Below, piece after piece: positions 40,081-42,999 of a stretch of 64,000 nt of DNA (within the stretch, counting starts at the first letter, position 1; every line of letters begins with the position of its first letter). A program made the translations under genes and the position numbers. This stretch comes from Escherichia coli. Its GTDB lineage: Bacteria; Pseudomonadota; Gammaproteobacteria; Enterobacterales; Enterobacteriaceae. A model generated the notes under the pieces. The model had not been told where the DNA came from and ran no database searches. It worked only from the letters and a program-made list of their open reading frames with translations. The DNA lies in assembly GCF_003334405.1 (NCBI RefSeq), contig NZ_QOWM01000001.1; one strand, 5' to 3'.

Positions 40081-41766
40081 ATGTACGATTTTAATCTGGT
40101 GTTGCTGCTGCTTCAGCAGATGTGCGTTTTTTTAGTCATTGCATGGTTAATGAGTAAAACGCCATTATTCATACCGTTAATGCAGGTCACGGTTCGTCTG
40201 CCGCATAAATTTCTCTGCTACATCGTCTTTTCCATCTTCTGCATCATGGGCACCTGGTTTGGGTTGCACATTGACGATTCTATTGCCAATACCCGTGCGA
40301 TAGGCGCGGTAATGGGCGGCTTACTCGGCGGTCCGGTCGTCGGTGGGCTGGTTGGCCTGACCGGCGGGTTACATCGATATTCGATGGGGGGCATGACCGC
40401 GCTAAGTTGCATGATCTCGACCATCGTTGAAGGATTGCTCGGCGGCCTGGTACACAGCATCCTGATCCGTCGCGGGCGCACTGATAAAGTCTTTAACCCC
40501 ATTACCGCCGGTGCCGTCACGTTCGTCGCTGAAATGGTGCAAATGTTGATCATCCTGGCGATCGCCCGACCTTATGAAGATGCGGTGCGTCTGGTGAGTA
40601 ATATTGCTGCGCCAATGATGGTCACCAATACCGTCGGCGCGGCGCTGTTTATGCGTATATTGCTCGATAAACGCGCGATGTTTGAAAAATACACTTCGGC
40701 TTTTTCTGCCACTGCGCTGAAAGTGGCTGCCTCGACGGAAGGCATTTTGCGCCAGGGGTTTAACGAAGTGAACAGCATGAAAGTGGCACAGGTGCTGTAT
40801 CAGGAGCTGGATATTGGTGCAGTCGCGATTACCGATCGAGAGAAATTGCTGGCCTTTACCGGAATTGGTGACGACCACCATTTACCCGGCAAACCGATAT
40901 CTTCGACTTACACCTTAAAAGCGATTGAAACCGGTGAAGTGGTCTACGCTGATGGCAACGAAGTACCTTATCGTTGCTCTTTGCATCCGCAATGCAAACT
41001 GGGGTCGACGCTGGTAATTCCGTTGCGTGGTGAAAATCAGCGGGTGATGGGCACCATCAAATTGTATGAAGCCAAAAACCGTTTATTCAGTTCAATCAAC
41101 CGCACGCTGGGCGAGGGGATTGCGCAACTGCTTTCGGCGCAGATCCTCGCCGGGCAATATGAGCGGCAAAAAGCGATGCTCACCCAGTCAGAGATCAAAC
41201 TGCTTCACGCCCAGGTGAACCCCCATTTTTTGTTTAATGCGCTTAACACCATTAAAGCGGTGATCCGTCGCGACAGCGAACAGGCCAGCCAGCTGGTGCA
41301 GTATCTTTCCACTTTTTTCCGCAAAAACTTAAAGCGGCCTTCGGAGTTTGTTACTCTCGCCGACGAAATTGAACATGTGAACGCTTATCTGCAAATTGAA
41401 AAGGCGCGCTTCCAGTCGCGGTTGCAGGTCAACATTGCTATTCCGCAAGAATTATCCCAGCAGCAATTGCCCGCGTTTACCCTGCAACCGATAGTGGAAA
41501 ACGCCATTAAACATGGGACATCACAACTGCTGGATACAGGGCGAGTGGCAATCAGCGCCCGACGTGAGGGGCAACATTTGATGCTGGAGATCGAAGACAA
41601 TGCCGGTTTGTATCAACCGGTAACCAATGCCAGTGGGCTGGGGATGAATCTGGTGGATAAGCGTTTACGTGAACGGTTTGGCGATGACTATGGGATAAGC
41701 GTCGCCTGTGAGCCTGATAGTTACACCCGAATAACGTTACGACTACCATGGAGGGACGAGGCATGA
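40081..41766 (+). CDS. btsS: LytS-type sensor histidine kinase BtsS (YehU)
   Basis: ORF 40066..41766; start at Met6 ([13 protein letters not shown]...) giving 561 aa. Confidence 0.9.
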
Positions 41767-42482
41767 TTAAAGTCTTAATTGTCGATGATGAACCGTTAGC
41801 ACGGGAGAACCTGCGCGTATTTTTGCAGGAGCAGAGCGATATTGAAATCGTTGGTGAGTGTTCAAACGCCGTGGAAGGGATCGGCGCGGTGCATAAACTG
41901 CGCCCGGATGTGCTGTTTCTCGATATCCAGATGCCGCGCATCAGTGGTCTGGAAATGGTGGGGATGCTCGACCCGGAACATCGTCCGTATATTGTTTTTC
42001 TCACCGCGTTTGACGAATACGCCATTAAAGCCTTTGAAGAACACGCCTTTGATTATCTGCTGAAGCCAATTGATGAAGCGCGACTGGAGAAAACGCTGGC
42101 GCGTTTGCGGCAGGAACGCAGCAAGCAGGATGTTTCGCTGTTACCAGAAAATCAACAGGCGCTGAAATTTATCCCTTGTACTGGGCATAGTCGGATTTAT
42201 TTGCTGCAAATGAAAGATGTGGCATTTGTCAGCAGTCGGATGAGCGGTGTCTACGTTACCAGCCACGAAGGGAAAGAGGGCTTTACCGAATTGACATTAC
42301 GTACCCTGGAAAGTCGTACACCACTACTGCGCTGCCATCGTCAGTATCTGGTTAACCTCGCGCATTTACAGGAGATTCGTCTGGAAGATAACGGCCAGGC
42401 CGAGTTGATTTTGCGTAATGGCTTAACCGTGCCGGTCAGCCGCCGTTATCTGAAAAGCTTAAAAGAGGCGATTGGCCTGTAA
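41763..42482 (+). CDS. btsR: LytTR-family response regulator BtsR (YehT)
   Basis: ORF 41748..42482; start at Met6 ([14 protein letters not shown]...); ATGA overlap with the btsS stop. Confidence 0.9.
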
Positions 42483-42528
42483 AAGACTGCTAAAATGGCT
42501 TTTTGCCTCATCAACACCTGAAGGCCTC

Positions 42529-42999
42529 ATGCTAAGTAACGATATTCTGCGCAGCGTGCGCTACATTTTGAAAGCCAATAATAATGACCTGGTGCGTATT
42601 CTGGCGCTGGGTAATGTCGAAGCCACCGCGGAACAGATCGCCGTCTGGCTACGTAAAGAAGACGAAGAGGGTTTTCAGCGTTGTCCGGACATTGTTTTGT
42701 CGTCATTCCTCAATGGCCTGATTTATGAAAAACGCGGCAAGGATGAGTCTGCTCCGGCACTGGAGCCGGAACGTCGCATTAATAACAACATCGTGCTAAA
42801 AAAATTACGCATCGCGTTTTCGCTGAAAACCGATGACATTCTGGCGATCCTCACCGAACAGCAGTTCCGCGTTTCGATGCCGGAAATTACGGCGATGATG
42901 CGTGCACCGGATCATAAAAACTTCCGCGAATGCGGCGATCAATTTTTACGTTATTTTCTGCGTGGACTGGCAGCGCGCCAGCATGTGAAGAAAAGCTAA
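42529..42999 (+). CDS. yehS: DUF1456 protein YehS
   Basis: ORF 42472..42999; start at Met20 giving 156 aa. Confidence 0.8.
   Translation: MLSNDILRSVRYILKANNNDLVRILALGNVEATAEQIAVWLRKEDEEGFQRCPDIVLSSFLNGLIYEKRGKDESAPALEPERRINNNIVLKKLRIAFSLKTDDILAILTEQQFRVSMPEITAMMRAPDHKNFRECGDQFLRYFLRGLAARQHVKKS

Follow-up and report, generated by a model that had tools for sequence, protein, structure and literature searches.

Background

BtsS, a membrane histidine kinase of the LytS type, binds external pyruvate through its membrane domain, and BtsR is the LytTR response regulator that activates the pyruvate transporter gene btsT, located elsewhere on the chromosome. The two proteins were reportedly first described as YehU/YehT in Kraxenberger 2012 and Behr 2014 (J. 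Bacteriol.), and the BtsR box is said, after Kraxenberger 2012, to read ACC[GA]CT[CT]A-N13-ACC[GA]CT[CT]A. In the locus described here, btsS and btsR are followed on the same strand by yehS, for which a role in BtsSR signalling had been proposed in a first-pass annotation, a guess from gene context. The same annotation had taken BtsS/BtsR to be a pyruvate-sensing system, a function that is already in print (PMC5431176, PMC10653868).

The btsS-btsR-yehS locus

The locus was analysed within a 64,000-nt stretch of Escherichia coli DNA (the window), in which the features of the three genes are as follows.

40034-40052, + strand: btsS promoter region and start site (approximate), from Reg-Seq
40081-41766, + strand: btsS (yehU), 561 aa, LytS-type sensor histidine kinase, high-affinity pyruvate receptor
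41763-42482, + strand: btsR (yehT), 239 aa, LytTR-type response regulator
41763-41766, + strand: ATGA overlap of the btsR start with the btsS stop, from the sequence itself
42483-42528, + strand: btsR-yehS spacer, 46 nt, without a terminator
42529-42999, + strand: yehS, 156 aa, two DUF1456 repeats

Read directly from the sequence, btsS begins with ATG at 40081 and stops with TGA at 41764-41766, btsR begins with ATG at 41763-41765 and stops with a TAA ending at 42482, and yehS begins with ATG at 42529 and stops with a TAA ending at 42999, all three on the + strand. The ATGA overlap reported earlier is therefore real, with four nucleotides (41763-41766) common to both genes, and it agrees with a coupling of btsS and btsR translation that it would be expected to bring about. 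The earlier placing of yehS 47 nt past btsR also holds, corresponding to a spacer of 46 nt after the last btsR base, and the three gene names are in accord with both the domain content and the annotation of matching E. coli chromosomes.

By megablast, 100% identical matches to 40081-42999 were found in several E. coli chromosomes, and the region was present in 5426/5426 complete E. coli genomes at a coverage of at least 80%, with the matching genomes annotating it as btsS, btsR and yehS (DUF1456 family protein). These are real annotated genes rather than a chance pattern, and the btsS-btsR gene order is already known and annotated in thousands of genomes; the locus is ordinary. Compared to MG1655, there are 24 nucleotide differences in btsS and 12 in btsR, all synonymous, leaving both proteins identical to those of K-12, and six in yehS, where one amino-acid change, G156S, falls on the final residue. 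The btsR-yehS spacer matches that of MG1655 with no differences.

Pfam assigned to BtsS an N-terminal 5TM-5TMR_LYT membrane sensor domain (PF07694, E = 1e-58, residues 27-196), together with GAF_2 (6e-7), His_kinase (PF06580, 1e-26) and HATPase_c (1e-5). The phospho-accepting histidine, H382, sits within NPHFLF, and all four of the pyruvate-contact residues listed in PMC10653868 (R72, R99, C110 and S113) are present. Given its 100% protein identity to K-12 BtsS, the function of which is described in PMC5431176, this BtsS would be expected to bind pyruvate and signal to BtsR. BtsR itself contains Response_reg (7e-26) and LytTR (2e-25) domains and the phospho-acceptor D54, and reached 420 bits with the BtsR equivalog model of NCBIfam, for which the cut-off is 246. 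Upstream of btsS, the yehU start site in the Reg-Seq records (PMC7567609), at MG1655 2214673, corresponds to about 40052 in the window, 29 nt 5' of the btsS ATG; the same records give a -10 footprint at -18 to -3 and an FNR activator site in anaerobic growth.

yehS has its own conserved extended -10 promoter

Two features precede the yehS coding sequence.

42488-42496, + strand: yehS promoter, extended -10 TGCTAAAAT, from Reg-Seq, RACE and conservation
42520-42524, + strand: yehS ribosome-binding site GAAGG, 4 nt 5' of the ATG

The extended -10 element starts 6 nt past the btsR stop codon. In the Reg-Seq supplements (PMC7567609), yehS is entered with a RACE start site, as its own transcription unit and 'upstream of whole operon'. 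Its -10 lies at +5 to +12 from the zero point 2212241 wherever a separate -10 was called, and in the remaining conditions, out of nine altogether, a wider RNA-polymerase footprint covers it. Transferred to the window, this -10 falls on 42489-42496 and reads G-C-TAAAAT, with TAAAAT at 42491-42496, and the RACE start site falls at about 42499, adjoining the -10. The experimental evidence for this promoter comes from a plasmid reporter (Reg-Seq) and a high-throughput RACE catalogue.

Conservation points to the same element. The pattern TGnTAnnnT was found at -44 to -38 from the yehS ATG in 61/81 Enterobacteriaceae loci, compared to about 4% expected by chance. In an alignment of the spacer from 20 Enterobacteriaceae genera, the -10 columns T38, A39, A41 and T43 show little or no variation, and the A-A-G core (A68, A69, G70) of GAAGG is almost invariant; the key -10 bases are among the few conserved columns, and the remaining spacer diverges. 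In Siccibacter, yehS keeps TGnTAnnnT although mlrA, not btsR, lies upstream, and where ERIC-like elements have inserted into the spacer, a -10-like box was regenerated afterwards. A scan for consensus promoters across 39800-43200 gave no sigma-70 site with both hexamers, missing the yehS promoter because one of the extended -10 type is invisible to such a scan. Thus yehS has an independent promoter, of a conserved extended -10 type. The first-pass annotation had named such a promoter beforehand as one of two points that together would tell against its own proposal, and it was found, with the conserved -10 coinciding with that recorded by Reg-Seq and the RACE start adjoining it.

The ATG start of YehS is supported by its homologues, which all begin M-x-N-N-D-I-L-R, and by the transcription start site, which lies downstream of an alternative TTG at 42472. 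The yehS mRNA would come mainly from this constitutive sigma-70 promoter, with a leader of about 25-30 nt bearing the GAAGG ribosome-binding site.

Read-through and the 3' end

No terminator-like site was found in the spacer between btsR and yehS, no stable fold was detected over 42440-42535 (z = -0.25), and no Rfam match was returned across 39-44 kb at E <= 1. Because the spacer is without a terminator, read-through from btsR into yehS is possible, and transcription begun at the btsS promoter probably continues into yehS as well. The earlier suggestion that yehS may be co-transcribed with the pair therefore stands in part: the common strand, the 46-nt spacer and the lack of a terminator are in its favor, whereas the presence of a separate yehS promoter is not. 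Past yehS lies one further feature.

43005-43036, no strand assigned: GC-rich hairpin between the convergent genes yehS and yehR

This hairpin has a folding energy of -22.3 kcal/mol on one strand and -22.5 kcal/mol on the other (z = -4.2 and -4.7, respectively), is matched by 0/200 shuffles and has no clear U-run. It is likely a two-way terminator or a 3'-end stabiliser, and all btsS, btsR and yehS transcripts would likely stop at this structure, which is common to the convergent yehR.

YehS and the DUF1456 family

YehS matches PF07308 (DUF1456) at residues 4-70 and 86-150 (Pfam, E = 4e-25 and 1e-23), and its AlphaFold2 model (pLDDT 97.6) has eight helices, arranged as two sets of four. The protein is soluble and basic, with a pI of 9.2, and its first repeat is acidic. 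The two repeats have no detectable similarity to each other by BLASTP, though both match the Pfam model. The family comprises about 900 clusters at 50% identity, from Proteobacteria, Bdellovibrio-like and Myxococcales-like genomes. Among 21 longer homologues that were inspected, most have lysine-rich tails, with a pI of about 10-11; a fusion with a DEAD-box helicase occurs in one homologue.

Searches for relatives outside the family gave little. NCBIfam has no family for YehS, a Pfam scan at E <= 10 returned DUF1456 only and no helix-turn-helix (HTH) family such as HTH_3, and PDB searches with the YehS sequence and, separately, with an 80-homologue profile gave nothing significant (arcadin-1, E = 0.84; troponin C, E = 0.17). 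Foldseek with the YehS model found no significant match in the PDB, HTH proteins included, and family members only in AFDB50. In the predicted structure, each repeat may weakly resemble a lambda-repressor/XRE HTH module, at Foldseek E-values that are non-significant. This weak likeness, taken together with the lysine-rich tails of the homologues and the helicase fusion, suggests nucleic-acid binding by YehS as a tentative lead, and it is our best guess for the protein.

Linkage of yehS to btsSR and rival readings

In a genome scan that took only matches of at least 75% identity, a range that leaves out Erwiniaceae and Yersiniaceae, yehS lay next to btsSR in 78/80 Enterobacteriaceae species. 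The arrangement is broken in Siccibacter, where yehS is apart from btsSR. Among nine distant DUF1456 loci, none (0/9) had a LytS/LytTR gene within 4-6 kb. The linkage is thus confined to Enterobacteriaceae among the loci sampled, and the wider gene context does not strengthen the idea that YehS takes part in BtsSR signalling. With a conserved promoter belonging to yehS itself, and an arrangement that does not recur outside one family, adjacency is weak evidence of a shared pathway, although the 78/80 synteny could also mirror selection for co-expression. Our best guess is that the position of yehS beside btsSR is an inherited Enterobacteriaceae arrangement, which is no proof of a shared pathway.

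That btsS-btsR-yehS is a single operon, in which YehS acts as an accessory or connector protein modulating the output of the BtsS kinase or the BtsR regulator, is considered unlikely. The closeness of yehS to btsR on one strand, uninterrupted by a terminator, and the gene order conserved across the family are what such an operon would have, as is the tolerance of ERIC-like elements in the btsR-yehS spacer, since these elements are located in transcribed regions; one Klebsiella database entry even fuses BtsR and YehS as a 413-aa call. These points are set against a conserved and experimentally mapped yehS promoter that Siccibacter retains even where yehS is split from btsSR, and against distant DUF1456 loci that show no association with LytS/LytTR systems. 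No BtsR direct-repeat box was found near yehS either: the motif given above had five matches in the whole window, each with three mismatches, where 3.7 were expected, which is chance level. An open-literature search outside Kraxenberger 2012 and Behr 2014 found nothing linking YehS to BtsS/BtsR, btsT, YpdA, yjiY or yhjX, and a Salmonella yehUT paper names yehS merely as a neighbour, with a supplement that holds no yehS data. A bolder form of the idea, in which the DUF1456 proteins are unrecognised two-module lambda-repressor-like nucleic-acid binders, captured beside btsSR in Enterobacteriaceae and tuning the LytTR-controlled pyruvate response, for example via the btsT/yhjX promoter regions or via BtsR, would be quite a long shot.

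YehS might be a two-lobed helical adaptor, or a small-ligand or metal sensor working through Cys-x-Asp motifs and His129, that makes protein-protein contacts and is not a nucleic-acid binder. The near invariance of C135, D137 and H129, with a matching CxD in repeat 1 of the consensus, is consistent with this, as are the acidic repeat 1, the two-lobed EF-hand proteins among the top (non-significant) matches (troponin C, E = 0.17; calmodulin, E about 0.7-1) and the lack of a significant HTH match in Foldseek; it is a rather unlikely reading. A place for yehS in the envelope-stress (sigma-E) response, with expression driven by a sigma-E promoter within btsR, appears highly improbable. An RpoE-holoenzyme genomic SELEX peak does lie within yehT and faces yehS (PMC5493296), but it records in-vitro binding only and belongs to the intragenic 'type D' class; a motif scan found no good GGAACTT-N16-TCAAA match in 41900-42530, the best being 9/12, and the sigma-70-like -10 in the Reg-Seq records was active in all conditions, heat shock included but not specific. 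The reading that we hold to be quite probable is that the region is an ordinary, characterised btsS-btsR operon followed by a separate yehS gene with its own promoter, the neighbourhood being inherited and YehS perhaps binding nucleic acid.

The locus itself is of little consequence; BtsS/BtsR is a published pyruvate sensor. The useful outcome is a negative one, in that the adjacency of yehS says little about a shared pathway with btsSR. There is modest value in YehS as a conserved E. coli protein from a family of about 900 sequence clusters across bacteria, for which the predicted fold, together with the lysine-rich tails found in related proteins, may provide a concrete lead toward nucleic-acid binding.

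Comparison with known systems

The closest described system is BtsS/BtsR (YehU/YehT) of K-12, with which this locus shares the same proteins, domain architecture and ATGA overlap, as well as the flanking genes, mlrA on the upstream side, yehS and yehR on the downstream side. Nothing substantial differs; the changes are synonymous only, and the window shows the locus in the opposite orientation to MG1655. In its transcription, yehS resembles genes downstream of an operon that are served by a separate promoter, internal or in the spacer: it lies on the same strand, at a short distance and with no intervening terminator, and its promoter sits where the upstream gene ends. It differs from them in having no demonstrated functional tie to btsS-btsR. 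Within the DUF1456 (PF07308) family, YehS shares the tandem PF07308 repeats. In Enterobacteriaceae, members measure only about 156 aa and lie beside btsSR, whereas the distant members examined are mostly stand-alone genes in unrelated contexts, many with lysine-rich C-terminal tails and, rarely, with helicase or GNAT fusions. Compared to lambda-repressor-like (Cro/C1, XRE) HTH domains, the examples being the TP901-1 CI N-terminal domain, Aca1, Aca10, ClgR and the POU-specific domain, YehS is without sequence-profile similarity, carries two modules in one chain, and has a long conserved loop, R-x3-H-K-x-[YF]-R-x-C-x-D, past the third helix.

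Locus structure and start codons

The window, whose yeh region is in reversed orientation relative to the K-12 reference MG1655, is E. coli chromosome, and direct reading of the sequence bore out the arrangement described in the first-pass annotation, an ATGA overlap of btsS (yehU) and btsR (yehT) followed by a same-strand yehS after a short spacer:

40081-41766, + strand, btsS
41763-42482, + strand, btsR
41763-41766, + strand, ATGA common to btsS and btsR
42483-42528, + strand, btsR-yehS spacer, 46 nt
42529-42999, + strand, yehS
~42679-42687 and ~42913-42939, Cys-x-Asp and His129 sites of YehS (residues 51-53 and 129-137)
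43005-43036, strong GC-rich hairpin with an 11-bp stem, where yehS and yehR converge (z = -4.2 on one strand, -4.7 on the other)

By megablast, several E. coli strains match 40081-42999 with 100% identity, and 5426/5426 complete E. coli genomes carry an essentially full-length match (coverage of at least 80%), annotated as btsS / btsR / yehS. Compared to MG1655, only synonymous differences were found in btsS (24 nt) and btsR (12 nt), the sole change in YehS is at the last residue, and the btsR-yehS spacer is identical; given this near-identity, K-12 experimental data are directly applicable. The neighborhood is the usual one, with osmF-yehYXW on the upstream side along with mlrA, transcribed divergently from btsS with 221 nt between the two, and with the convergent yehR and then yehQPML downstream of yehS. 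The minus-strand cluster of yehQ (SWIM zinc finger), yehP (vWA), yehM (DUF5682), and yehL (AAA ATPase), at 43626-46990 and beyond, is annotated but functionally uncharacterised and looks like a MoxR/vWA-type module.

A mechanical ORF list extends btsS back to a GTG at 40066 (566 aa) and yehS to a TTG at 42472 (175 aa; 42472-42999), a long form of yehS that is also used by some database gene calls (homologue P0001). The annotated ATG starts of both genes are favoured on the basis of homologue N-termini, the ribosome-binding site, and start-site position.

yehS has its own promoter

In the published Reg-Seq mapping of E. coli promoters, yehS counted as a unit of its own, for which RegulonDB supplied a RACE start site, and its zero point, MG1655 2212241, is the RACE site shifted 15 bp upstream (PMC7567609). 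With MG1655 yehS at 2211726-2212196, the zero point converts to window position 42484 and the RACE site to ~42499. Over nine conditions (heat shock, iron, LB, M9, anaerobic, trehalose, zinc, xylose-arabinose, and xanthosine), the -10 was placed at +5 to +12 (once +5 to +17) wherever a separate -10 was called, while the remaining conditions gave a wider RNA-polymerase footprint spanning it (PMC7567609). These positions correspond to 42489-42496, with the sequence G-C-TAAAAT, and an "activator" footprint reported at -2 to +5 (PMC7567609) falls at 42482-42489, ending on the TG of TGCTAAAAT (42488-42496). We infer from the TG that it and the -10 together form an extended -10 promoter. A consensus promoter scan did not detect the yehS promoter, because the scan demands a -35 hexamer.

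The element is conserved well outside E. coli. TGnTAnnnT occurs 38-44 nt upstream of the yehS ATG in 61/81 Enterobacteriaceae loci, compared to about 4% expected from shuffles, and most of the other loci keep the TAnnnT hexamer at the equivalent place. In a spacer alignment of 20 genera, the conserved columns were T38, A39, A41, and T43, which are the TAnAnT of the -10, as well as G52 and the A-A-G of the yehS ribosome-binding site. In Siccibacter turicensis and S. colletis (L029 5849-12468 and L033), mlrA is the immediate neighbour of yehS, 152 nt away, with btsS ~4.6 kb downstream and past three other ORFs in L029, and TGATACACT is retained 40 nt upstream of the yehS ATG; the rearrangement uncouples yehS from btsSR with the -10 box kept. 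In six Citrobacter and Kluyvera loci (L012 (5823-6000), L018, L020, L022, L024, and L025), an imperfect palindrome widens the spacer to 104-178 nt, and just past the insert a -10-like box is re-formed with the usual spacing to the ATG. The insert core in L012 and L020, …CACCCCAGTCAC…CTCCAGGGGATTC…, is ERIC/IRU-like; Trabulsiella (L076) carries an insert of another kind. The Siccibacter rearrangement and the spacer insertions are two natural experiments that agree with a separate yehS promoter.

Co-transcription of yehS with btsSR, as proposed in the first-pass annotation, stands in part. The spacer has no terminator-like site (42483-42528), 42440-42535 is no more stably folded than shuffled sequence (z = -0.25), and the spacer region matches no Rfam family; with neither terminator nor stable fold, read-through from the btsS promoter is possible in addition to transcription from the yehS promoter. 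Against this, the independent promoter, named beforehand as half of what would refute the proposal, was found both by the Reg-Seq mapping and by conservation. The hairpin at 43005-43036 has a clear U-run on neither strand and is probably the common 3′ end of yehS and yehR, acting as a shared terminator or as an mRNA 3′-end stabiliser.

BtsS and BtsR

The identification of btsS/btsR as a pyruvate-sensing pair was confirmed by domains, key residues, and published function (PMC5431176 and PMC10653868). The domains of BtsS are 5TM-5TMR_LYT, GAF, His_kinase, and HATPase_c, and it carries H382 and all four pyruvate-contact residues described in PMC10653868. BtsR has receiver and LytTR domains, with D54 present, and matches the BtsR equivalog of NCBIfam at 420 bits (cut-off 246).

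Reg-Seq also gives btsR a RACE start site of its own at MG1655 2212969 and a -10 footprint at -18 to -7 in 5/7 conditions listed, in the region ~41738-41756 (PMC7567609). The RACE site converts to ~41756, inside the btsS 3′ end and just 7 nt upstream of the btsR start codon. Together, the site and footprint suggest that btsR, despite the ATGA overlap, may have an additional internal promoter. For the btsS promoter, an FNR-type activator site at -62 to -25, active in anaerobic growth, was reported (PMC7567609); TTGAT-N4-ATCAA was not obvious by eye in the mlrA-btsS intergenic region (~40000-40052).

Gene context of yehS

A role for YehS in BtsSR signalling had been proposed from gene context, and the wider context adds no support to it. 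The btsS-btsR-yehS order is present in 78/80 Enterobacteriaceae species representatives, which form one lineage, so that inheritance can explain it. The DUF1456 family is far wider (904 clusters at 50% identity), and nine distinct distant loci (38-55% identity; Myxococcales-like, Oceanospirillaceae, Bdellovibrionaceae, and other genomes) all lacked homologues of BtsS and BtsR within 4-6 kb, with neighbours that were unrelated from locus to locus. A motif search of the window found no BtsR direct-repeat box near yehS. These results weaken the guilt-by-association argument. The literature searched, whose coverage did not extend to two founding J. Bacteriol. papers, did not tie YehS to BtsS/BtsR, btsT, yhjX, or YpdA/B; a Salmonella yehUT study names yehS merely as a neighbour, and the phenotypes found were growth and solvent-tolerance effects of knock-down or knock-out (PMC6131188), with one proteomics listing besides. 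An AlphaFold database entry, A0A7H4P052 (Klebsiella grimontii, 413 aa, "yehT"), contains the entire YehS fold (TM 0.98 to the query); it seems to reflect either a gene call that merged BtsR with YehS or a genuine loss of the stop codon.

The YehS protein

YehS consists of two DUF1456 repeats (Pfam), and NCBIfam and PDB sequence searches returned nothing. From 80 homologues, AlphaFold2 gave a model of very high confidence (pLDDT 97.6, pTM 0.91) with two four-helix repeats. The conserved residues E119, A122, R125, H129, C135, and D137 cluster in repeat 2, on its third helix and in the following loop; both repeats conserve a Cys-x-Asp motif, and repeat 2 has the nearly invariant His129, a pattern that could mark a metal or redox site.

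Nucleic-acid binding by DUF1456 is a tentative lead. YehS is basic (pI 9.2; 10.1 for repeat 2), most of 21 longer homologues examined have lysine-rich, disordered C-terminal tails (pI about 10-11, K 15-31%), and one homologue each is a fusion with a DEAD-box helicase (546 aa) and with a GNAT acetyltransferase (293 aa). This falls short of an assignment to the HTH superfamily, for which the sequence-profile test was negative and one of two structural methods gave no significant result.

To the modest question of what YehS does, this analysis contributes a promoter map, a context result, and a fold-based hypothesis; the btsS-btsR-yehS locus itself is an already known, ordinary one, and its two-component pair offers nothing new over the published pyruvate-sensing system.
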